A stretch of DNA of 40,478 nt from Escherichia phage PhiNW-B1. The notes under the pieces are model-generated. The model searched no databases, had not been told where the DNA came from, and was given only the letters and a program-made list of their open reading frames with translations. The DNA lies in sequence record PQ476010.1, one strand, 5' to 3'. Position numbers and translations under genes: made by a program. This document shows, in pieces, positions 367 through 36,894 of the stretch; positions within the stretch are counted from its first letter, which is position 1; every line of letters starts with the position of its first letter.

Positions 367-810
367 ATGCTCGAATTTTTAAAGAGAGCGGCTCCGTGGT
401 TACTTGCAGCAGTGATGTTTGCTGGTGGCTACCACACCGCTAACAATAAGTGGGAGGCTAAGGTAAATGCAGAATACACCTCGAATCTTAAGGCATCGGA
501 AGATACAAGGCTTGCTGTCCAAGCTGAAGTCAACAAAGTGTCCAAACGGTTTCAGGACGAAATGTCCTCGCTGGAAGGCAGCACTGATAGGATTATTGCT
601 GACCTTAAGTCTGACAATAAGCGGTTGCGCATCCGAGTCAAACCAACGAGTGGAACCACGCAAAGTGACGGTCGATGCGTCATTGATGATTACGCCGAAC
701 TTGACGAACGAGATGCTAAACGTCTTATCTCCATCGGACTGAAAGGAGACGCTTGGATTAAAGCACTACAGGACACTGTGAGATCATTGCAGCAAGATAA
801 GGAGAAATAA
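367..810 (+). CDS. 18.5: i-spanin (Rz-like, T7 gp18.5-like)
   Basis: 147-aa ORF with N-terminal hydrophobic segment; position after gene 18; RBS GGGAGGG upstream. Confidence 0.8.
   Translation: MLEFLKRAAPWLLAAVMFAGGYHTANNKWEAKVNAEYTSNLKASEDTRLAVQAEVNKVSKRFQDEMSSLEGSTDRIIADLKSDNKRLRIRVKPTSGTTQSDGRCVIDDYAELDERDAKRLISIGLKGDAWIKALQDTVRSLQQDKEK
467..742 (+). CDS. 18.7: o-spanin (Rz1-like lipoprotein, gp18.7-like) embedded in +1 frame of 18.5; true start uncertain
   Basis: ORF wholly inside 18.5 in another frame; lipobox-like LTISGC preceded by hydrophobic stretch ALIGLLLTLSL; N-terminal 35 aa before signal is atypical so start may be internal or non-canonical. Confidence 0.5.
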   Translation: MQNTPRILRHRKIQGLLSKLKSTKCPNGFRTKCPRWKAALIGLLLTLSLTISGCASESNQRVEPRKVTVDASLMITPNLTNEMLNVLSPSD

Positions 811-1196
811 TGCTAACCGACTTTACTTACTCAGATGGGAAGTTGTTCAGGAAGGGACGCGAAGTCGGCTCAATGGACAACCACGGGTATCTAAGGACTA
901 CGGTCAACTACCGTAAGTATCTCGTACACCGTCTAATCTACAAGCTACACAACCCTGAGTTCGACCTTGAGTCAGACCTCGTTATTGACCACATCAACCG
1001 CGACCGAACAGACAACAGGATTGAAAACCTTCGGGCTGTGACTAAGGCTGAAAACAACAGGAACAGGGACCTACCGAGAGGCGTGTCTTATTGCAAACAG
1101 ACCGGGAAGTGGAAGGCTATCCAACCTCGCTGGCTCGGTCGATTTGATACTGAACAGGAGGCCATAGATGCAGTTAACGCCGCAAGAGCGGAATGA
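810..1196 (+). CDS. HNH homing endonuclease with C-terminal AP2-like DNA-binding region
   Basis: motif [28 protein letters not shown] (HNH); C-terminal GVSY...WKA...LGRF..EQEAIDA; RBS AAGGAG; ATG overlaps 18.5 stop (ATAATG). Confidence 0.8.
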
Positions 1197-2931
1197 GGCA
1201 GTAACCAATCGGATGAAAGAAGACTTCGTGTTCTTCTTATTTGTCCTCTGGAAAGCACTTAGCCTACCAGTACCAACCAGATGCCAGATAGATATGGCCC
1301 GTAAGCTCTCCGCTGGGGACAACAGGCGCTTCATCCTACAGGCGTTCCGTGGTATAGGGAAGTCCTTCATTACGTGTGCCTTCGTGGTCTGGAAGCTATG
1401 GAATAACCCAGACTTGAAGTTCATGATTGTGTCGGCCTCAAAGGAACGAGCCGATGCTAACTCCATCTTCATCAAGCGAATCATCGACCTCATGCCTCAG
1501 CTTCGGGAACTCAAACCTAAGCAGGGGCAGCGAGATGCGGTTATCAGCTTCGACGTTGGACCAGCCAAGCCAGACCACTCACCTTCGGTTAAGTCCGTTG
1601 GTATCACTGGTCAGTTGACTGGTAGCCGTGCTGACATCCTGATTGCCGATGACGTGGAGGTTCCGAACAACTCAGCGACTCAGGCTGCCCGAGACCGTCT
1701 GTCAGAGCTTGTGAAAGAGTTCGACGCTATCCTGAAGCCGGGAGGTACAATCATCTATCTGGGTACTCCTCAGAACGAGATGACCTTGTATCGTGAGCTG
1801 GAAGGCCGTGGGTACACCACTACTATCTGGCCTGCTCGTTATCCACGCGACAGGAAGGACTGGCAGTCTTACGGCGACCGTCTGACTCCTATGCTTCAGG
1901 CAGAGCTTGAAGAGGACCCTGAGTCCTTCTACTGGCGTCCTACCGATGAAGTACGATTCGATGATACGGACCTGAAGGAACGTGAGCTGTCCTATGGTAA
2001 AGCTGGCTTCGCTCTACAGTTCATGCTTAACCCTAACCTAAGTGATGCCGAGAAGTACCCTCTGAAGCTCCGTGACCTTATCGTAGCAGACTTGGACCCA
2101 GCGTCTAGCCCAATGGTCTACCAATGGCTTCCTAACCCTCAGAACAAGCGTGAGGACGTTCCTAACGTTGGACTCATGGGTGACTCATACCACACGTATC
2201 AGACTGTAGGTTCTGCCTTCAGTTCGTACACCCAGAAGATTCTGGTCATTGACCCTAGTGGTCGTGGTAAGGATGAAACTGGCTATGCGGTACTGTATCA
2301 GCTCAACGGCTACATCTTCGCTATGGAAGTTGGTGGTATGCGTGGTGGTTATGAAGACTCTACGCTGGAAGCACTAGCTAAGATTGGTCGTAAGTGGAAG
2401 GTCAACGAATACGTCATTGAGGGTAACTTCGGCGATGGTATGTACCTTGAGCTATTCAAGCCTGTAGCGGCCCGTATCCATCCTGCTGCTGTAACTGAAG
2501 TGAAGAGTAAGGGTCAGAAAGAACTCCGCATCTGTGACGTTCTGGAGCCTATCATGGGGTCTCACCGACTTATCGTTAACGCTGCTGCTATCGTCCAAGA
2601 CTACCAGTCAGCCTCTGATAAGGATGGTGTGCGTAACCCTATCTACTCTCTCTTCTACCAGATGACCCGTATCTCTCGTGAACGTGGAGCCTTGGCACAC
2701 GATGACCGACTTGATGCGCTGGCTATCGGTGTACAGTTCTTCGTTGAGTCGATGGCTAAGGATGCCAACAAAGGCGAACGTGAAGTCACTGAGGAGTGGC
2801 TGGAGGAACAGATGGAGAACCCACGGAAAGGCTTCGAGTCCATCCACACTGAGTTCTGGGACAATGGGGTCCGGGTGACTCACGATACGGACGACGAGCT
2901 GGGACTAGGGTCATACGTTACGTTCCACTAG
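1168..2931 (+). CDS. 19: DNA maturase B / large terminase subunit (T7 gp19-like)
   Basis: 587 aa; strong similarity by recall to T7 gp19 ([49 protein letters not shown]); RBS AGGAGG 6 nt upstream. Confidence 0.95.
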
Positions 2932-16632: not shown

Positions 16633-16673
16633 CTAGACTCAAGGTCATTCATAGCGAGTGGCCTTTATGATTA
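16633..16673 (+). promoter_or_regulatory. conserved hairpin element (AAGGTCA / TGGCCTT) upstream of DNA polymerase gene
   Basis: arms 16641-16647 and 16659-16665; third copy of the TAGACTCAAGGTCAT...GTGGCCTTTATGATTAA element. Confidence 0.4.
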
Positions 16674-16693
16674 AACTAAAGCGAGGATTAACC

Positions 16694-18865
16694 ATGTTTG
16701 ACCTTAAGAGTATCTGGGGTTCTGACATCGAGACCAACGGTCTCCTTGATACAGTCTCCCAGTTTCACTGTGGGGTCCTGATTAACGCCGAGTCGAATGA
16801 GACCCTTAAGTATGGGGTAGCTCCGATGGTCGGTATCGTCGGCGGCTTCAAAGAGTATGTTCATAAAGTGGAAGAGATTGCCGCATCACCTGATGGTATG
16901 CTGGTATTCCATAACGGTATCAACTATGACGTCCCGGCTATAGACAAGCTGAAGCGTTTGTACTTTGGGAAACGCTTTAACTTCCAGAAACATAAGATGA
17001 TTGATACCTTGGTGCTGGGACGCTTGATGTATCCAAACATTAAGTTCTCAGACATGGGCGCGGTGAAAGCTGGTCGTCTGCCACCTAAGATGATGGGACG
17101 CCAGTCTCTTGAGGCTTGGGGCTATCGTCTCGGTGAGATGAAAGGTGAGTACAAACACGATTACGTTGCCAAGTGCAAGGCTGAAGGTATCGAATATAAG
17201 GCTGGGGACGAATGGTTGTTCCCGTCTCAGGAGATGCTGGACTATAACGTTCAAGACGTTGTGGTCACACTGGCGTTGTTCAAGAAGTTCCTGACTGACA
17301 AGTATTACTTCCAGTCTGAACAGTTCGCTTTCGACCAGATTTATGCGTTGCGTCTGGAACATGATGCTGCGTGGACCTGTGCGAAGATGGAGCGTAACGG
17401 CTATCCGATGAACACCGAGATGGTCGAAGGCTTATATCGTGAACTCACTGTCAAACGTGCAGAGTTGCTGGACAAGCTGCGTTCGACTTTCGGTAGCTGG
17501 TACGCACCAAAGGGAGGCAAGGAGTTCTTCAGGCATCCACGGACAGGTAAGGACCTTCCGAAGTATCCGAGGGTCGTGTATCCTAAGGTCGGTGGCATCT
17601 TTAAGAAGCCGAAGAACAAAGCTCAACGCTTAGGTCTTGAACCTTGTGAACGCGATACGCGAGACACGATGGAAGGAGCACCATTCACGCCAATCACTTA
17701 CGTTGAGTTTAATCCGGGAAGCGGAGACCACTTAGCGAAAGTCCTGATGGAGCGTGGCTGGGAGCCTGTTGACTTCACTGACACCGGGAAACCTGTAGTC
17801 GATGACGAGACGTTGGAACACGTTAAGTTACCAGACGCAGAGGCTCAGGCTTGCGTAGAGCTGGTCCGTGAGTATCTGGTAGTCCAGAAGCGCATCGGAC
17901 AGGCTGCTGAAGGTAAGAACGCATGGTTGAAACTTGTAGGTCCAGACGGACGTATGCACGGTTCAATCAACCCTTGTGGAGCAGTAACCGGACGTGCGAC
18001 CCATAGTTCACCAAACATGGCTCAGGTCCCGGCTAACGGTGCTCCATACGGTGAGACTTGCCGTGGTGCTTTCGGTGCAGCGTGGAACAAGAAGGACGGT
18101 AAGCCAGACCCTTGGATTCAAGTAGGCGTGGATGCTTCAGGTCTTGAGCTTCGTTGTCTGGGGAACCGAGCGGCTCCGTTTGATGGTGGCGCCTATGCGA
18201 AGACTGTGGTCGAAGGTGACATCCACTGGGCCAACGCAGTCAACGCTGGGTTAGCACCTAACGTCCCACGCAATAAGTCCAGCCACGACCATGATGCTTT
18301 CCGTAACAACGCTAAGACGTTCATCTATGCGTTCCTATATGGTGCAGGGGCCGCGAAGATTGGACTGATAGTTGGCGGTGGTAAGAAGGAAGGTTCAGCT
18401 CTCATGAAGAAATTCATTGAGGGTACACCAGCCATTAAGGACCTCAGGGAAGCTGTCAGTAATACGTTAATCTCGGACTCTAAGTGGGTAGACGGTGAGA
18501 ACATCGTGAAGTGGAAACGCCGCTGGCTGAAGGGTCTGGATGGTCGTCGCATTCACATCCGGTCCCCGCACTCAGCACTTAACGCCCTACTTCAGGGTGA
18601 CGGTGCGGTGGTCTGTAAGCACTGGATAGTCGAGACCGAGCGTATGCTTGAAGAAGCTGGCTATGTCCACGGCTGGGAAGGTGACTTTGCGTACATGGCT
18701 TGGGTTCACGATGAGCTGCAAATTGCGTGTCGTACTCAGGAGATTGCCGAAGAAGTCGTCAAGATTGCTCAACTTGCTATGCGTAAGGTGGGCGAGTTCT
18801 ATAACTTTAAATGCGTCCTTGACACCGAAGGGAAGATTGGACCAACGTGGAAGGAGTGCCATTGA
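16694..18865 (+). CDS. 5: DNA polymerase (T7 gp5 homolog, family A)
   Basis: SDIETN.LL..V.QFHCGV, GSWY.PKGG.E.F.HPRTGK.LPKYPR, NAKTFIYAFLYGAG, YMAWVHDELQ; start at ATG 16694 (RBS GAGGA) since track GTG start lies inside the hairpin. Confidence 0.97.
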   Translation: MFDLKSIWGSDIETNGLLDTVSQFHCGVLINAESNETLKYGVAPMVGIVGGFKEYVHKVEEIAASPDGMLVFHNGINYDVPAIDKLKRLYFGKRFNFQKHKMIDTLVLGRLMYPNIKFSDMGAVKAGRLPPKMMGRQSLEAWGYRLGEMKGEYKHDYVAKCKAEGIEYKAGDEWLFPSQEMLDYNVQDVVVTLALFKKFLTDKYYFQSEQFAFDQIYALRLEHDAAWTCAKMERNGYPMNTEMVEGLYRELTVKRAELLDKLRSTFGSWYAPKGGKEFFRHPRTGKDLPKYPRVVYPKVGGIFKKPKNKAQRLGLEPCERDTRDTMEGAPFTPITYVEFNPGSGDHLAKVLMERGWEPVDFTDTGKPVVDDETLEHVKLPDAEAQACVELVREYLVVQKRIGQAAEGKNAWLKLVGPDGRMHGSINPCGAVTGRATHSSPNMAQVPANGAPYGETCRGAFGAAWNKKDGKPDPWIQVGVDASGLELRCLGNRAAPFDGGAYAKTVVEGDIHWANAVNAGLAPNVPRNKSSHDHDAFRNNAKTFIYAFLYGAGAAKIGLIVGGGKKEGSALMKKFIEGTPAIKDLREAVSNTLISDSKWVDGENIVKWKRRWLKGLDGRRIHIRSPHSALNALLQGDGAVVCKHWIVETERMLEEAGYVHGWEGDFAYMAWVHDELQIACRTQEIAEEVVKIAQLAMRKVGEFYNFKCVLDTEGKIGPTWKECH

Positions 18866-29158: not shown

Positions 29159-29208
29159 AAGGGCCTATAGATTTACCTTAACTATCACTATAGGGACTAT
29201 AGGCCCTT
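29159..29208 (+). repeat. 12-bp perfect inverted repeat (AAGGGCCTATAG / CTATAGGCCCTT) enclosing the phi13 promoter
   Basis: arms 29159-29170 and 29197-29208 exact reverse complements; 26-nt loop contains promoter -17..+4. Confidence 0.85.
29176..29198 (+). promoter_or_regulatory. phage RNAP promoter (phi13-like), +1 G at 29193
   Basis: CCTTAACTATCACTATAGGGACT. Confidence 0.75.
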
Positions 29209-30281: not shown

Positions 30282-32564
30282 ATGGCTAGTAATATTGAAT
30301 CAGCTCTGGCTAATCGGACTATGGGTCGTGGCAGAGCGCCGGGTAAAACTATCGCCGTCAACTATCAAGCAGCCAGCGTTCAGGCTCCGACTGGTGACTC
30401 CGGTCTGGCCCGTGCGTTAACCAACTTCGTTGAGTCTGGAACTGGATTGTACAAGCAGTTCAAAGATGATGAGAAGACGCGGGCTGACGAGAGGTCTAAC
30501 GAGATTATCCGTAAGCTGACCCCTCAGCAGAGACGAGAGGCTATCCAGAACGGGACACTGCTGTATCAGGACGACCCGTATGCTATGGAAGCACTTCGAG
30601 TCAAGACAGGTCGTAACGCTGCCTTTGCGGTGGATGACGAGATTAACGTTAAGATTCAGAACGGTGAGTTCCGTACACGTCAGGACATGGAAGAGTATCG
30701 CCACCAGCGACTTCAGGACGCCGCTAAGTCCTATGCTGAAGAGGCGGGTATTAACCCTACAGATGAGTTCTTCCAGCGCGGGTTCAACGATAACATCACA
30801 GACCGAAACATCGCTATCTATGGGTCTTTCAATAAGTATTTCAGTAAGCAGTCTGAAGAGACAGCAATGTTGAATACTCGTATTGAGATGAACTCATTCC
30901 TGAACGATGGCGACCTGATGCGTTCACCTGAGTCTGGCAAGACCTTCATGGCCTACCTTCGTGATGGACTAACTACTGCTGCTATCCCTTCGGACCAGCG
31001 AGCACGGGAGGTAATTACCCAGACGGTCCGTGACGCAATCCAGAAGTCAGGCGGCTCCAACTTCCTACAGCAAGTACGAGGCGAGCGAATCACCCTTAAC
31101 GGTGTGGATGCTACAGTCGAAGAGATTGTAGGACCTGATGTCTTCAACGCTGCTATTGTTGAGGCGCAAGGAACTGAGTACAAGCTGGTGGCTAAGTATC
31201 AGGAGGACTTAGCGTTAGGCGTTCAGTCTGCGATTCTTCAGGACGACCCAACCATCGGTCTGGACCAGATTCAGAAACTCAAGGAGCAGAACAACCTGCT
31301 TCAACCGGGTGAAGAACTCACGCCTCAGCGTCAGATGCTTATTAATGCCGAAGCCAGCTTGCTTGAAGCGGTAAAGCGTAAGTCTGCTGAACAGGCGAAG
31401 GAGAACACTAAGTTAATCCAGACTCAGAACAAGCAACTGGTAATTGACCAAGTGTATCAGCGACGTCTGGCTGGGGACAACGTGTCCACCAACTATGAGG
31501 ACCTTCCAGTCTCAGATGCTACAGGCGAGTTCAAGCGTTCTGACATGAACAACTATGCGTCTGCCAAGCTACAGCAGATTGACCAGATGGACATACCTGA
31601 GGCTGCTAAAGACGCTCAGAAGGTGGCATTGTTAAGAGCTGACACTAACAACGGTCCGTTCCGTAATGCCTTCCAGACTCTAACTCAGGACGCTGCTGGC
31701 GAGTGGCAAGCTGCGGTCATCCGGGGACAGTACGACCCAGACAAGATGCAACGCTTCGAGTCTCTTCGTCGTGCCTACACTCAGGACCCTTCAAGTTTTG
31801 CAGCTCTGTATCCTGACCAAGCTCAGTTGTTCTCTACGTTCGACCAGATGGACAAGATGGGTCTGGACCCTCAGACGATGATTGAAGCTGATAAGCAAGC
31901 TGCAAGTCAAAGCCGTGAGATGCGAATGGAGTCAGACAAGGCGTGGCAGGAGTTGAAGAACGACTCCAAGAACACCCAGTTGTCTCGCCTCCCAACGTCT
32001 CTGGACTCAAGTGCTCGTAAGGTCTGGGACTCATGGTACTATCGTACAGGGAACGCTGACGCTGCAACTCAGCAGACTCAACGCTGGCTTAACGAGAACA
32101 CCGTAACGTTCCAATCTGAAGGTTCGGACGGTAAGTCCATCGGCATGGTGTCCAAACACCAGCTTATGGTCGGGGATAACCCAGAGTCGTGGCAGGTGGG
32201 TCGAGACATTATCGACACAGCTCGTCAGCAGCTCATTAAGGCCAACCCTTGGGTAGTGAACTCTCAGCTCTCCGTAGTTGAGCAGAACGGCTCGGTCTTC
32301 CTTCAGGACGCTACCGGGACTATTCGTATTCGATACGATAAAGAGCTGGTAGGCAAACTGTACCGTGAACAGCAGAAGCAAGCCGAGGATAAAGCCTACG
32401 CTGAGGCCGAACGTAAAGCCAACACCCGCGCTCGCATTGTCGAGACTAAAGCGGCTGGTGATAAGCGTCGTAACGAGCGTGAAGCTAATATCCAGAAACG
32501 GGGCGGTATGTACAGCGATGTCTCTCTGGAGGGTATCGCAAACACCTTAATCGGTAAGGAGTAA
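30282..32564 (+). CDS. 15: internal virion protein B (T7 gp15 homolog)
   Basis: 760 aa (T7 747); position. Confidence 0.9.
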   Translation: MASNIESALANRTMGRGRAPGKTIAVNYQAASVQAPTGDSGLARALTNFVESGTGLYKQFKDDEKTRADERSNEIIRKLTPQQRREAIQNGTLLYQDDPYAMEALRVKTGRNAAFAVDDEINVKIQNGEFRTRQDMEEYRHQRLQDAAKSYAEEAGINPTDEFFQRGFNDNITDRNIAIYGSFNKYFSKQSEETAMLNTRIEMNSFLNDGDLMRSPESGKTFMAYLRDGLTTAAIPSDQRAREVITQTVRDAIQKSGGSNFLQQVRGERITLNGVDATVEEIVGPDVFNAAIVEAQGTEYKLVAKYQEDLALGVQSAILQDDPTIGLDQIQKLKEQNNLLQPGEELTPQRQMLINAEASLLEAVKRKSAEQAKENTKLIQTQNKQLVIDQVYQRRLAGDNVSTNYEDLPVSDATGEFKRSDMNNYASAKLQQIDQMDIPEAAKDAQKVALLRADTNNGPFRNAFQTLTQDAAGEWQAAVIRGQYDPDKMQRFESLRRAYTQDPSSFAALYPDQAQLFSTFDQMDKMGLDPQTMIEADKQAASQSREMRMESDKAWQELKNDSKNTQLSRLPTSLDSSARKVWDSWYYRTGNADAATQQTQRWLNENTVTFQSEGSDGKSIGMVSKHQLMVGDNPESWQVGRDIIDTARQQLIKANPWVVNSQLSVVEQNGSVFLQDATGTIRIRYDKELVGKLYREQQKQAEDKAYAEAERKANTRARIVETKAAGDKRRNEREANIQKRGGMYSDVSLEGIANTLIGKE

Positions 32565-32566
32565 AC

Positions 32567-33016
32567 ATGAAGAACGGGACAGCCAGTGAGAGACTGGCAG
32601 AACTGTCAGTAGCTGAAGAGTCTGGCTGTATCCGCTTCACCGGAAGCATTGAGAAGTCCGGGTACGGAAGGATAATGGTCAACAGGGTCAAATACGGAGC
32701 GCATAGACTTGCTTACGAGCTTGCTAACGGTCCTATACCCGATGGGTACGTTGTTCGCCATAAGTGCGACAACCCGTCCTGTATAAACCCAAGCCACCTT
32801 GAAGTCGGCACCCAAGCTGATAACATAAAGGATAAGGTGACTAGAGGTCGCCAAGCGTCAGGATGCTCCATAGGAGTATCTAAGCTCACTGAGGAAAGTG
32901 TGCGTGACATAAGGTCCAGCGACCTAAAGGTTTCACTCTTGGCTGAACGCTATGGAGTGAGTACGGTTTCTATTAGAAATATCTTGAGGAGAAAGACATG
33001 GCAACACGTGGAGTAA
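32567..33016 (+). CDS. HNH homing endonuclease inserted between genes 15 and 16
   Basis: motif VVRHKCDNPSCINPSHLEVGTQADN (HNH with Cys/His ligands); TAAGGAG RBS; packed with 2-nt gap to gene 15 and 19-nt overlap into gene 16. Confidence 0.85.
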   Translation: MKNGTASERLAELSVAEESGCIRFTGSIEKSGYGRIMVNRVKYGAHRLAYELANGPIPDGYVVRHKCDNPSCINPSHLEVGTQADNIKDKVTRGRQASGCSIGVSKLTEESVRDIRSSDLKVSLLAERYGVSTVSIRNILRRKTWQHVE

Positions 33017-36000
33017 GGAACGCAAATCCGGGCAATATCCGTAAGTCAAAAGACCAATGGGAAGGTGCTGTTGGCGATGACGGTGCATTCGTTATCTTCG
33101 ATAGTCCTGAATCTGGAGTAAGAGCATTAGCGAAAAACCTTCAAAGCTACGGTCGACAGGGCTATGACTCAATCGAGAAGATTATCAACCGCTGGGCACC
33201 ACCTAACGAGAACGACACTCAGTCCTACATCGACTCGGTTGTGGCTGCGACTGGTATTCCTGCAACCCAAAGTATCGACCTGAGCAACCCTGATGTACTC
33301 GCCTCTCTGTCTGAGGCTATCGGCTACCATGAGACTGGTTCCCGGTATGACCCTGAGGTCTACAAGACTGGCGTATCTCGTGCCTTAAGTGGTGCTGGAG
33401 GCATCACCCCAAAGACCTCACCAGTAAGCGCTAACGTCTTCGACGCTCTCACGGAGGGCTTGAAGTCGAAACCTAAAGTCGCTCTGGGAGAGAACCTTCC
33501 GGGCGTTACTGGTATGAACATCGAAGGTCAAGCACCTGAGGCTCCCAACGAGTCCTTCGGAGAGATGTTCTATAAGTCAACTGGCGAGACGCTGGACCAA
33601 CGGGCTGACCGCTCTACGTGGTTCGGCTTCGGTGGAGCTGCTGAGGCTGAAGTGAAGAACTCTATGGTCGGCGTGGCTATCCGCGCTGGTCAGACTGAGG
33701 ACTCACTGGATGTCATTGGCGATGTGTTCAACCCAACCCGATGGAACAACCATAAGTGGACTCGTGAGGAGCTGGACCAGATTCGTAACGCTGGGGTTCT
33801 GCCTCAGTATTACGGAGTCATTACTGGCGGCTCTCCTCAGAACCTGACTGAGCTTATTAACTTGGCGCTTGAGAACCAGAAGTTGGACCAAGAGAAGGCC
33901 AAGGCGGGGACTGGCGCTCAACTGGCGGCTGGTGTGATTGGTGCTGGCGTGGACCCTCTGACCTACGTTCCTATTGCTGGGCAGGTAGGTAAGGGCGGGA
34001 AGCTAATCAACAAGATGTTCACTGTGGCTGCTCAGTCTGGTGCTCTGGCTGGGGCATCCGAGATTGCTCGAACCTCAGTTGCTGGTGGGGACGCTCATGT
34101 GGCTGAGGCAATTATGGGCGGTGCTCTCTTCGGTGGGGGAATGACAGCTATCGGGGACGCTATCGGCAAGGCCTTAGGCAAGTCAACCAACGAGTTCGCC
34201 GGGCCAGCCACACGTCTGGAAGCCCGTGAGACTGCACGTAATGTTGATGGTCAGGACCTGTCGCGTATGCCAATCCGTGAAGGAGAGGAGACCTTTAGGC
34301 ATCAAGGAGTTAAGTTCGCTGACGTTCCGAATGAGCCGGGTAGTGTACGGCTTGAAGACGGCTCAATCCTGATTGGTGAGAACCCTCTGAACCCTAAGAC
34401 ACGTCAGGTCTTTGACGAAGTGATTGAGCCTGAACGGGCCGCTGCTGGTGTGAACCTTGGTGGTCTGACTGAGATTGGCCTGAAGCTGCTTCGGTCTGAG
34501 AACCCTGAGATTCGTGGAGTAGCTGCTGACTTAGTGCGTTCACCGACTGGTATGCAGTCTGGGGCATCAGGTAAAATCGGGACCACTGCGTCTGACGTAT
34601 TCGAGAGACTTCGTGCTGTGGACCATCGGTTCTACAACGACATCGACGATGCGGTTACTGAGGCACTAAAGGACCCGTACTTCCAGACAGCATTCTGGCG
34701 AGACTCTGGAGCATTCCGTCAGGACATCTACCAGCGCGTGTCTATGGCTATCGAAGATGGTAGCGGAAATCTGAAGGCTGAACTGACTCCTGGAGAACTG
34801 AAAGTCTATGACCTACTGAAGAACCAGTTTGACGCCAAGCGTGAGATGATGGAGAACCCGGCGATGTTTGGTCGTCCAGACGCTCAGTCTATCTTTCCGG
34901 GCAGCCGCTTCAAGGGAACATACGTCCCGCATGTGTATAGCAACCAGATGAAGGAGCTGTACATCAAGGAGCTTGGGAGTCCAGAGGCACTACAGGAGGC
35001 CATCAAGAAGTCATGGTTGACCAGCTATGCGTCTCGACCTGAGGTCAAGAAACGTGTGGACGAGGCACTCTTAGAGGCTGACCCTACGTTGACTCCAGAA
35101 GGACTTGCGGCTGCGGTCGATAAGTACGCCAACGATAAGGCTTATGGTATCTCTCACACCGAGCAGTTCGAGCGTTCATCCGTAATGGAAGAGAACATCA
35201 ATGGTCTGGTGGGTCTGGAGAACAACAGCTTCCTTGAGGCTCGTAACCTGTTCGATAGCGATATGTCAATCGTCCTACCTAACGGTCAGACCTTCAGTGT
35301 CAACAACCTGCGTGAGTGGGACATGGACAAGATTGTCCCGGCCTACAACCGTCGAGTTAATGGCGATATTGCTATCATGGCTGGTACAGGCAAGACCACG
35401 AAGGACATGAAGGACTTGGTTGAGACCATGATGAACAAGGCTGGGGATGACGGTAAGTTGAAAGGTGAAGTATCTACCTTACGTGACACTTTGAAGATTC
35501 TAACCGGTCGTGCTAGACGTGATGGTGCTGATGATGCGGCCTTCGCTACCGTGATGCGCACAATGACAGACCTATCGTTCTTCGCTAAGAATGCCTACAT
35601 GGGTGTTCAGAACTTAACGGAGATTGGTGGTATGCTGGCCCGTGGTAACGTTCGTGCAATGCTGCATGGAGTCCCAATTTTCCGTGACCTAGCCTTCCGT
35701 AACAAGAAAGTTGGGGCCTCAGAGATTAAGGACCTGCACAATGTTATCTTTGGTAAGGAGCTGGATGACTCAATCCGTCCGTCTAAACAGGATGTCATTG
35801 ACCGCCTGCGATCTTACAGTGACCTCGGTCGTGGTACAGCTACAGCTCTGGGGACTGCCAAGTATTACACTGGCGAACTTGCAGTACGCTCTCCGTTCAC
35901 TAAAGTCCTCAACGGTACGACCAACTACCTGTTAGATGCTGGACGTCAAGGCTTCCTGTCTGACATCGTGGAGCATAGCCTGACTGGTAGTAAGCGTAAG

Positions 36001-36894
36001 TTCGATGACCGCTGGCTTAAGACCGCTGGTATCTCTGACGAGCAGTGGAAGGGCATTAAGTCCCTCATCCGTGAGTCAGTGACTCGTGGTCCAGACGGGA
36101 AGTACACCATTAAGGATAAGAAGGCGTTCAGTCAGGACCCAAGGGCTATGGACCTGTGGCGTATGGGTGATACCATCGCTGACGAAACGTTACTACGTCC
36201 TCATAAGCTGTCCAACATGGACGCAAAGGCTTATGGTCCTCTCGCTAAGACTGTCCTTCAGTTTAAGAACTTCGTCATCAAGTCCATCAATGGACGTACC
36301 ATGCGAACCTTCTATAACGCCACGAAGAACAACCGAGCGATGGACGCTGCCCTGTCCACTGTGATCTCTATGGGTCTTGCTGGTATCTACTACATGGCTC
36401 AGGCTCATGTCAAGGCTTACGCTATGCAGGATGGTCGAGACCGTGACTACCTCAAGCAAGCTCTAGACCCGACGATGATTGGATATGCAGCTCTATCGCG
36501 TAGTTCACACCTTGGTGGACCACTTGGGGTAGCTAACATTCTGGGTGGCATCGCTGGGTATGAGGACACTAAGATGCTCCGTTCGTCTATCCTACCTCGT
36601 TCGCCCACAGAGAAGCCTGAACGTGCAATCGCGTATGGTGCAGCTACAAGTGACCCTGTGATGAATGTTGTTGGTAACTTCTTGGAGCAGGTTCCAGCTT
36701 TCGGATATGCTGCTAACGTTGGTGCTTCGGCTTATAACTTGGCTGGCTACCTGAAGGCCGACACTCGGGTAAACGAGCGAGACTACATGACCGGGATGTA
36801 TAACACCTTCCGTGAACTGGTTCCGAACGACCCGATTACTCAGAAGTTGCTACTGGGAACGTTTGAGGAGCAAGGTATCCACATCAAGGACTAA
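32998..36894 (+). CDS. 16: internal virion protein D (T7 gp16 homolog) with divergent N-terminal domain
   Basis: 1298 aa (T7 1318); from about residue 200 onward co-linear with T7 gp16 by recall (TWFGF..AAEAE, RWN.H.WT.EEL, PVDPL.YVP, LVRSPTGMQSGASGK, NDKAYGISH, NGDIAIM); first ~130 aa differ. Confidence 0.95.
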   Translation: MATRGVRNANPGNIRKSKDQWEGAVGDDGAFVIFDSPESGVRALAKNLQSYGRQGYDSIEKIINRWAPPNENDTQSYIDSVVAATGIPATQSIDLSNPDVLASLSEAIGYHETGSRYDPEVYKTGVSRALSGAGGITPKTSPVSANVFDALTEGLKSKPKVALGENLPGVTGMNIEGQAPEAPNESFGEMFYKSTGETLDQRADRSTWFGFGGAAEAEVKNSMVGVAIRAGQTEDSLDVIGDVFNPTRWNNHKWTREELDQIRNAGVLPQYYGVITGGSPQNLTELINLALENQKLDQEKAKAGTGAQLAAGVIGAGVDPLTYVPIAGQVGKGGKLINKMFTVAAQSGALAGASEIARTSVAGGDAHVAEAIMGGALFGGGMTAIGDAIGKALGKSTNEFAGPATRLEARETARNVDGQDLSRMPIREGEETFRHQGVKFADVPNEPGSVRLEDGSILIGENPLNPKTRQVFDEVIEPERAAAGVNLGGLTEIGLKLLRSENPEIRGVAADLVRSPTGMQSGASGKIGTTASDVFERLRAVDHRFYNDIDDAVTEALKDPYFQTAFWRDSGAFRQDIYQRVSMAIEDGSGNLKAELTPGELKVYDLLKNQFDAKREMMENPAMFGRPDAQSIFPGSRFKGTYVPHVYSNQMKELYIKELGSPEALQEAIKKSWLTSYASRPEVKKRVDEALLEADPTLTPEGLAAAVDKYANDKAYGISHTEQFERSSVMEENINGLVGLENNSFLEARNLFDSDMSIVLPNGQTFSVNNLREWDMDKIVPAYNRRVNGDIAIMAGTGKTTKDMKDLVETMMNKAGDDGKLKGEVSTLRDTLKILTGRARRDGADDAAFATVMRTMTDLSFFAKNAYMGVQNLTEIGGMLARGNVRAMLHGVPIFRDLAFRNKKVGASEIKDLHNVIFGKELDDSIRPSKQDVIDRLRSYSDLGRGTATALGTAKYYTGELAVRSPFTKVLNGTTNYLLDAGRQGFLSDIVEHSLTGSKRKFDDRWLKTAGISDEQWKGIKSLIRESVTRGPDGKYTIKDKKAFSQDPRAMDLWRMGDTIADETLLRPHKLSNMDAKAYGPLAKTVLQFKNFVIKSINGRTMRTFYNATKNNRAMDAALSTVISMGLAGIYYMAQAHVKAYAMQDGRDRDYLKQALDPTMIGYAALSRSSHLGGPLGVANILGGIAGYEDTKMLRSSILPRSPTEKPERAIAYGAATSDPVMNVVGNFLEQVPAFGYAANVGASAYNLAGYLKADTRVNERDYMTGMYNTFRELVPNDPITQKLLLGTFEEQGIHIKD

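Follow-up and report, generated by a model that had tools for sequence, protein, structure and literature searches.

The stretch of DNA analysed here (the window) is the 40,478-nucleotide (nt) sequence of Escherichia phage PhiNW-B1 (PQ476010.1). The open reading frame (ORF) at positions 32567 to 33016 is very probably a free-standing homing endonuclease gene (HEG) of the HNH type, of the T7 gp7.7 family and I-HmuI-like, that lies at the junction of genes 15 and 16 of a K1F-like Kayfunavirus and is mobile by homing. The element is typical and of a kind that has already been annotated. What goes beyond the routine is limited to its 19-nt dual-coded fusion to gene 16, the footprints of this fusion, and a donor tract of about 1.4 kb. 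On megablast comparison the source genome belongs to Kayfunavirus (Autographiviridae, Studiervirinae), is approximately 95% identical to coliphage K1F over 25 kb, and has Pipis, 216Ecol046PP, phiYIO1-1, and K1F as its closest genomes.

The initial annotation had described an HNH gene in a 450-bp slot with a 2-nt gap on its left and a 19-nt overlap on its right, and these coordinates are confirmed. The gene 15 stop codon TAA is at 32562-32564 and is followed by AC and the endonuclease ATG. The gene 16 ATG at 32998 lies within the endonuclease ORF, generating the 19-nt overlap (32998-33016). The arrangement is as follows.

30282..32564, plus strand: gene 15, an ORF for internal virion protein C of 760 amino acids (aa), gp15 in the annotations of relatives.
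32556..32561, plus strand: Shine-Dalgarno sequence AAGGAG, 5 nt 5' of the endonuclease ATG and within the last gene 15 codons.
32567..33016, plus strand: endonuclease ORF of 149 aa with an ATG start, very probably a homing endonuclease gene of HNH type, free-standing and in the T7 gp7.7 family.
32986..32991, plus strand: replacement Shine-Dalgarno sequence GAGGAG for gene 16, within the endonuclease coding sequence.
32998..33016, plus strand: dual-coding overlap, gp16 M-A-T-R-G-V-R in frame 0 and endonuclease W-Q-H-V-E-stop in frame +1.
32998..36894, plus strand: gene 16, an ORF for internal virion protein D of 1298 aa, in which residues 1-119 are a non-T7 N-terminal module.

The endonuclease ORF is real and not a chance ORF, because it has significant matches to Pfam HNH_3 (PF13392; aa 43-86, 63 bits against a cut-off of 24.8, E 1.9e-17) and to several PHROG HNH families, including PHROG 59 'HNH endonuclease' (E 7e-38). 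A weaker Pfam match is to zf-His_Me_endon, the zinc-binding loop of His-Me homing endonucleases. The motif RHKCDNPSCINPSHLEVGTQADN is found at aa 64-86, and the protein is 50.8% identical to T7 gp7.7 over aa 21-148. In Citrobacter phage CR44b the orthologue has, since 2014, carried the annotation "7.7C predicted homing endonuclease", with a predicted helix-turn-helix (HTH), and the CR44b genome announcement is silent on 7.7C. In the records of the remaining relatives the orthologue is labelled as an HNH endonuclease or a hypothetical protein.

It had been proposed that an HNH gene was inserted at the 15/16 boundary, with universal presence among relatives as the outcome that would speak against this. 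The synteny comparison supports the insertion. The insert is at the junction in only about 20-25 of the 220 phage records that match the 2-kb region (approximately 10%). The junction was read in 41 genomes, 14 of them occupied and 27 empty. In the empty sites, a spacer of 3-5 nt (CATA, TAACA, AAACT, TAATA) separates the gene 15 TAA from the gene 16 ATG. In the occupied sites there is an equal or shorter spacer and then ATGAAGAAC…, the insert being 431-433 nt; the host genes are intact and the boundaries are identical. An empty junction is present in the backbone relatives K1F, 216Ecol046PP, phiYIO1-1, and Vec13, as well as in Pisces, SH4, and most other Kayfunavirus. The genomes nearest to PhiNW-B1 either do not have the gene (K1F, 216Ecol046PP, phiYIO1-1) or have an allele that is 59% identical (Pipis). 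The 15/16 slot has been used repeatedly, since Klebsiella phage phi1_146022 has a 37%-identical HNH gene there, with a 17-nt overlap into gene 16.

There are signs in the sequence alignments that the gene arrived by recombination along with roughly 1 kb of adjacent DNA. For this analysis gene 15 and 2.6 kb of gene 16 were aligned with the insert removed, and sites were assigned to a K1F/Vec13 type (K), a Pisces/SH4-like type (P), or a carrier-linked haplotype (H). Far from the junction PhiNW-B1 is 97-100% identical to the K1F/Vec13 clade. Near the junction this identity falls to 60-76%, and identity to the Pisces/SH4-like phages is 96-100%. From left to right the types are as follows.

Up to 32255: K-type, 84 consecutive informative sites.
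32268..32564, plus strand: left arm, P-type at 56 of 57 informative sites and covering the final ~300 nt of gene 15.
33017..33264 (end approximate), plus strand: H-type block in gene 16, mixed, matching neither the K nor the P empty-site haplotype.
33270..33645, plus strand: right arm, P-type at 73 of 74 informative sites, 98-100% identical to L004/Pisces.
From 33669: K-type backbone resumes.

The breakpoints are sharp (32255/32268 and 33645/33669), giving a foreign tract of about 1.4 kb (~32256-33668). Within it, the left arm is 100% identical to L004/Pisces against 70-84% to Vec13/K1F. The H-type block is 88-98% identical to that of carriers on other backbones (PH1061, CHRF_10022, EFA-1, CR44b, Ro103C3lw) and is linked to the endonuclease gene in most carriers; over its first 150 nt, identity is 92-98% with HEG-containing PH1061 and Ro103C3lw, against 60-74% with K1F, Vec13, and Pisces, which lack the HEG. 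In carriers with a K-type backbone, the left side of the insert often has the recipient's spacer, and the right end of the H-type block varies by genome. Such variable ends are as expected if the tracts were converted independently. The distribution of the gene is incongruent with the genome phylogeny, and the flanking markers appear to have been co-converted with it. PhiNW-B1 therefore has the look of a K1F-type genome with a donor tract of ~1.4 kb, which would be the product of a homing event or of equivalent recombination. One of the carriers, a Kayfunavirus ~93% identical to the window, has been deposited as 'Enterococcus phage EFA-1' (MT350292.1, UNVERIFIED_ORG), an implausible host for a K1F-like coliphage.

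The fusion with gene 16 is exact. The final endonuclease codons are ACA TGG CAA CAC GTG GAG TAA, translated as T W Q H V E stop, in which the opening 19 nt of gene 16 are read in the +1 frame. Natively, the family terminates in W-x-H-[V/I/L], then 0-1 residue and a stop; of the 78 homologues, 56, mostly from unrelated contexts, stop 4-5 residues past the invariant Trp. The ending T-W-[Q/R]-H-V-[E/V]-stop is present in all 14 HEG-containing genomes. The common gene 16 start of empty sites, ATGGCGACTCGTGGTATTCGC (K/P-type), reads W-R-L-V-V-F-A in the +1 frame and has no stop. In carriers, a T→A change at nt 9 of gene 16 encodes endonuclease His147, G or A at nt 6 gives Arg or Gln146, and nt 15-19 form the endonuclease stop and compel an AGR codon for gp16 Arg7, while gp16 M-A-T-R-G-(V/I)-R is preserved throughout. 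These changes are specific to carriers because the first seven codons of gene 16 also encode the C-terminus and stop of the endonuclease. The common empty-site start is found in none of the 14 carriers and in 22 of the 27 non-carriers (Fisher p = 3e-7, with samples that are not phylogenetically independent). A role for these substitutions as markers of target-site immunity or co-conversion was considered and dropped as independent evidence, since they are required for His147 and the stop.

The same recoding is found in some phages that do not have the gene. HC13 and Esher7 carry the complete recoded gene 16 start, and Monomax and phiYIO1-1 keep just the stop part. Since a random synonymous gp16 start fits the endonuclease C-terminal pattern only about 0.3% of the time, the best reading of these four phages is that they once carried the gene or were partially reconverted, although their recoded starts may instead represent the ancestral site.

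The insertion also affects the translation signals of the junction. In HEG-less genomes the order is GGTAAGGAGTAA, the 3-5 nt spacer, and the gene 16 ATG, and the AAGGAG there serves gene 16. The endonuclease gene appropriates this Shine-Dalgarno sequence at the end of gene 15 and supplies a new one, with a new ATG, for gene 16: GAGGAG, six bases, and the gene 16 ATG sit inside the last endonuclease codons, and the 3' end of each allele is ...GAGGAGA(AAGAC/TTAAC)ATG. The endonuclease gene stands free as an ORF within the late 13-14-15-16 transcription unit and has no promoter of its own, no promoter, terminator, or Rfam family having been found in the insert. Matches to the phage RNA polymerase promoter consensus TAAACTATCACTATAGG number 11 on the plus strand, against 0.14 expected by chance, and none is located between 29194 and 36892, hence none in the insert. 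Matches to sigma-70-like promoters and terminators in the insert are at chance level, and an Rfam search over 32000-33600 at E<=1 found no intron or other RNA family. The phage promoters are as follows.

29178..29194, plus strand: late promoter of the phage RNA polymerase, TTAACTATCACTATAGG, 5' of gene 13 and the nearest promoter upstream of the endonuclease gene.
3028, 6167, 9245, 10912, 12111, 14462, 20956, 23776, 24772, 29178, and 36892, plus strand: promoter sites matching the consensus.

These 11 sites delimit the transcription units of PhiNW-B1. In HC13 and pO91 there is an extra ORF for a 128-aa hypothetical protein between genes 13 and 14 (494..880 of the retrieved region), which PhiNW-B1 lacks; this is another indel polymorphism within the late operon.

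Three or more deep allele lineages are present in the slot, each of exactly 149 codons.

Lineage 1: the PhiNW-B1 type, with ZH4 and CHRF_10022/SD6 as sub-types, 81-97% aa identity.
Lineage 2: the Pipis/TM1/Ro45lw/GA2A type, ~59%.
Lineage 3: Ro103C3lw, 58%.

The gene is intact in all 14 of the sequenced HEG-containing genomes. Ratios of non-synonymous to synonymous substitution (dN/dS) for diverged alleles against that of PhiNW-B1 are 0.08-0.24 at a dS of ~1.6-2.4, where synonymous sites are saturated, and the diverged alleles appear to be under purifying selection. Across the three deep lineages the first ~35 nt (32567..32600) and the last ~25 nt (32990..33016) are near-identical and the middles are saturated at synonymous sites. 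This suggests either that alleles are replaced by recombination within the conserved ends or that these ends are constrained at the nucleotide level.

Truncated copies were also found in the homologue search, located on full-length contigs of ~39 kb. A 90-aa product is generated by a 1-nt deletion near codon 90, with the downstream frame still readable, in at least 24 contigs from several samples; a 122-aa product is generated by an independent 2-nt deletion. Both frameshifted copies occupy the 15/16 slot and have kept the recoded gene 16 start. The endonuclease gene is thus dispensable and able to decay. Together with the footprints, the frameshifted copies fit the cycle of invasion, decay, and loss through which selfish endonuclease genes pass.

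At the protein level, G32, H65, C67, D68, C72, H77, G81, N86, and W145 are invariant in the 78 homologues, among them the catalytic His (H65) and the metal-binding Asn (N86) of the H-N-(H/N) motif. Every allele in the 15/16 slot retains H65, C67, D68, C72, H77, and N86. A single-sequence AlphaFold model was unusable (predicted local distance difference test, pLDDT, 37.8), and the AlphaFold2 (AF2) model based on the 78-homologue alignment (pLDDT 89.6) was used. It predicts beta-strands at the N-terminus, then a core of beta-beta-alpha form (61-92), and a C-terminal domain made up of three helices (109-140). Within the core, a strand at 61-65, a strand at 78-82, and a helix at 83-92 would form the beta-beta-alpha-metal fold. 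The two functional regions are as follows.

32693..32824, plus strand: HNH_3 beta-beta-alpha-metal nuclease core (Pfam, aa 43-86), with invariant H65, C67, D68, C72, H77, and N86.
32891..32986, plus strand: putative HTH-like DNA-binding domain of three helices (aa 109-140; AF2 helices 109-117, 122-129, and 133-140, pLDDT ~94).

In a Foldseek search of the PDB with this model, I-HmuI (1u3e) was the top match (E 7.8e-4, probability 1.00, 144 aligned columns, template modelling (TM) score 0.45), followed by I-PpoI and then further His-Me finger folds. A sequence search of the PDB with the endonuclease gave no match at E<=1. Distant homologues have C-terminal matches to the Pfam families HTH_7 or Sigma70_r4; when the C-terminal 56 aa of the PhiNW-B1 protein were searched alone against Pfam, HTH matches were sub-threshold at best. 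From its sequence and predicted fold, the protein is classed as a putative nuclease of the HNH / His-Me finger family that is I-HmuI-like.

A mechanism can be proposed, in which the cutting of empty junctions and the recombinational copying are suggested by the comparison of genomes. In a mixed infection, the monomeric enzyme would bind the empty 15/16 junction of a relative in an extended manner, as I-HmuI does, by means of its N-terminal sheet, its HNH core, and the HTH at its C-terminus. It would nick or cut this junction, most likely inside the opening ~25 nt of gene 16 or right next to them (...GGTAAGGAGTAA-N3-5-ATGGCGACTCGTGGTATTCGC). Recombination-dependent repair would then copy in, from the carrier genome, the endonuclease gene along with flanking DNA of variable length. 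Carriers would themselves be immune, since in them ~431 nt interrupt the site and gene 16 nt 6, 9, and 15-19 are changed. Such a mechanism agrees with what is well established for free-standing homing endonucleases of phages (PMC2790892, PMC10448857).

Several observations weigh against an actively homing gene. Genes 15 and 16 are mosaic elsewhere, and ordinary phage recombination could yield a patch that is centred on the gene. A second mosaic patch is located at ~34000..34200 (gene 16 +1000 to +1200 nt) with no nuclease gene nearby; PhiNW-B1 is there 100% identical to K1F and 216Ecol046PP and 75-80% identical to Vec13 and most other relatives, and nucleotide diversity (pi) has a local peak of 0.170. 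The patch at the junction is asymmetric and compound, with P-type arms and an H-type block, and no sequenced phage exactly matches the presumed donor, Ro103C3lw having the same flanks with a 58%-identical allele. That carriers and the gene 16 start are linked is due to overlapping coding and is not an independent pointer to the cut site, and the recoded start in HC13 and Esher7, which are without the gene, can be read as loss or as an ancestral site. The TM-score to I-HmuI is just 0.45. Finally, searches of the literature turned up no characterisation of this locus, of CR44b 7.7C, or of T7 gp7.7.

Mosaicism elsewhere in genes 15 and 16 and the dispensability shown by pseudogenised copies would also suit an inactive passenger, that is, an intact ORF that cuts nothing and owes its patchiness and its surrounding patch to general homologous recombination. 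This is quite unlikely. Retention of a dN/dS of 0.08-0.24 over saturated synonymous sites, with catalytic and zinc-loop residues invariant, argues for an active protein that has been maintained for a long time, and the three deep lineages are all of exactly the same length. In addition, the most diverse 100-nt window across the 4.7 kb of genes 15-16 abuts the slot, being the first 100 nt of gene 16 (pi 0.226, against a mean of 0.112 and a standard deviation of 0.034). The same purifying selection, together with a late-operon position beside essential genes, could point to a nuclease that has been retained or domesticated to the advantage of the phage, either by cutting the genomes of co-infecting relatives (interference competition, marker exclusion) or by degrading host DNA. 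There is a precedent in a phage intron endonuclease that reportedly helps competition between co-infecting viruses (PMC11620839). However, the gene is missing from ~90% of the genus, K1F included, and frameshifted copies persist on many contigs, making benefit to the phage an unlikely explanation overall. Competitive exclusion by cutting of the empty allele would in any case be the same act as homing, so it overlaps with the homing explanation and does not replace it.

HK97 gp74 is an HNH protein that assists terminase. A comparable packaging-associated or virion protein, needed for morphogenesis, might be looked for in a late structural operon such as this. It is, however, the HNH gene at 810 that is adjacent to the terminase (1168-2931) and not the gene at 32567, which is missing from most of the close relatives that build the same virion and is frameshifted in full-length, high-coverage genomes. 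These viable HEG-less and frameshifted relatives effectively refute a packaging role, which is highly improbable. A terminase-associated HNH was ruled out on similar grounds, the locus being between genes 15 and 16 and missing from most of the genus. An intron-encoded homing endonuclease was ruled out as well, as the insert lies between two complete ORFs and no Rfam family was found in 32000-33600. A free-standing homing endonuclease gene is the explanation that is preferred.

The initial annotation also noted that the gp16 N-terminus diverges from T7 and took this as a possible sign that flanking sequence had been replaced along with the insertion. The divergence is real: the first 119 aa have no similarity to T7, and BLASTP of gp16 against T7 gp16 aligns only from aa 120 (T7 aa 144), at 54% identity. 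Replacement of flanking sequence is also supported, in the form of the ~1.4-kb patch and the recoded first 19 nt of gene 16. The T7-divergent domain is not its sign, and the suggested co-variation of this N-terminal segment with the HEG is not seen, since the module is present in all HEG-less members examined, including K1F. The divergence of the gp16 N-terminus from T7 is a genus-level module swap that is unconnected with the insertion, because HEG-less Kayfunavirus genomes share the module. The idea that the module travels with the endonuclease gene was rejected, as distant viral contigs have the module with no HNH gene nearby. On these unrelated viral contigs, stand-alone proteins of 135-168 aa that are encoded beside lysis-like genes are 41-46% identical to gp16 aa 1-119 (32998..33354). 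This region has no Pfam match and no similarity to the transglycosylase domain of T7 gp16. From this, the gp16 N-terminal module looks like a captured small muralytic or endolysin-like protein.

It is possible, though doubtful, that the 19-nt fusion makes the slot an engine of allelic exchange, in which the gene 16 start is rewritten whenever the element is gained, lost, or swapped for another allele, with DNA of the gp16 N-terminus dragged along and the start left as a scar. If so, exchange at the slot would make genes 15-16 most diverse over the first ~400 nt of gene 16, the DNA that is dragged would amount to tens to hundreds of nt of the N-terminal (cell-wall-degrading) module, and the recoded start would be a legible record of past occupancy in phages that no longer have the gene.

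The PhiNW-B1 locus offers a clean natural example of what is very probably a selfish nuclease gene that has been fitted into a compact T7-like late operon with its neighbours unharmed. Such elements may carry pieces of the flanking virion genes between distinct Kayfunavirus lineages. The 15/16 junction would then be a natural insertion-tolerant site and probably a recombination hotspot, which is relevant to the classification and engineering of K1F-type therapeutic phages. The current understanding of homing endonucleases is unchanged.

The gene can be compared with a second one in the same genome. The window is circularly permuted relative to K1F, and its left end holds an Rz-like gene, the first HNH gene, and the terminase.

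810..1196, plus strand: first HNH_3 gene, 128 aa, HNH_3 E 6e-18, with a weak AP2-like C-terminal match.

This gene lies between the Rz-like lysis gene (367..810) and the gene for the terminase large subunit (1168..2931). Like the gene at 32567, it encodes an HNH_3 protein and overlaps the start of an essential downstream gene, in this case that of the terminase large subunit, by 29 nt. The two differ in slot and in C-terminal region and are very distant in sequence. The statement that they are unrelated was too strong, as both are HNH_3 proteins with a local BLASTP match of 16/32 identities (E 3e-7). They are very distant paralogues, with tblastn of either protein against the window at E<=1 missing the other, and a search of the 40,478 nt for paralogues found no HNH_3 genes beyond those at 32567 and 810. 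For the homologue of the 810 gene in Hafnia phage Ca, ORF 48, a 397-bp presence/absence polymorphism has been reported in a single stock of the phage (PMC8861465). The genus has a further endonuclease slot in the DNA polymerase of Ro45lw, which is annotated as two ORFs split by a homing endonuclease ORF (table in PMC9866566); the PhiNW-B1 polymerase (16658..18865) appears as a single uninterrupted ORF.

T7 gp7.7 has the same domain order as the PhiNW-B1 protein, in addition to the sequence identity reported above, and 7.7C of CR44b is named for it. The location differs, however, with T7 7.7 being between genes 7.3 and 8. In T7 the 15/16 junction is an empty 26-nt spacer and the gene 16 start is unrelated.

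I-HmuI is encoded by a group I intron in Bacillus phage SPO1 and is an HNH homing endonuclease that nicks one strand. The predicted structure of the PhiNW-B1 enzyme is similar in having an HNH_3-type beta-beta-alpha-metal core followed by a helical DNA-binding tail, and both are small and presumably monomeric and extended on DNA. The two are only ~20% identical (TM 0.45), and the PhiNW-B1 gene is free-standing between two ORFs and intronless, whereas that of I-HmuI is intron-encoded. The enzyme family to which the PhiNW-B1 protein belongs also has an invariant Cys/His loop (C67, C72, H77; the weak zf-His_Me_endon match), unlike I-HmuI.

The free-standing endonucleases of T4-like phages (for example mobE and the Seg proteins) are likewise intergenic, intronless, sporadic in distribution, and found beside conserved essential genes, and they mobilise themselves and flanking DNA by unidirectional gene conversion (PMC2790892, PMC2330249). 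For the T4-like genes cleavage and co-conversion have been demonstrated in crosses, whereas the PhiNW-B1 case is drawn from comparative sequence alone. A particular anatomical feature of the PhiNW-B1 slot is the 19-nt dual-coded fusion of the endonuclease C-terminus with the start of an essential gene. HEGs beside essential genes have also been described at the edges of recombinant segments in ICP1 and other phages (Barth, Dunham & Seed 2023, PMC10448857). The islands there are larger (>10 kb against ~1 kb in PhiNW-B1) and involve a different HNH subfamily. The likeness is in position, the PhiNW-B1 gene being at the 5' edge of the swapped gp16 N-terminal module and at the centre of the 1.4-kb tract.

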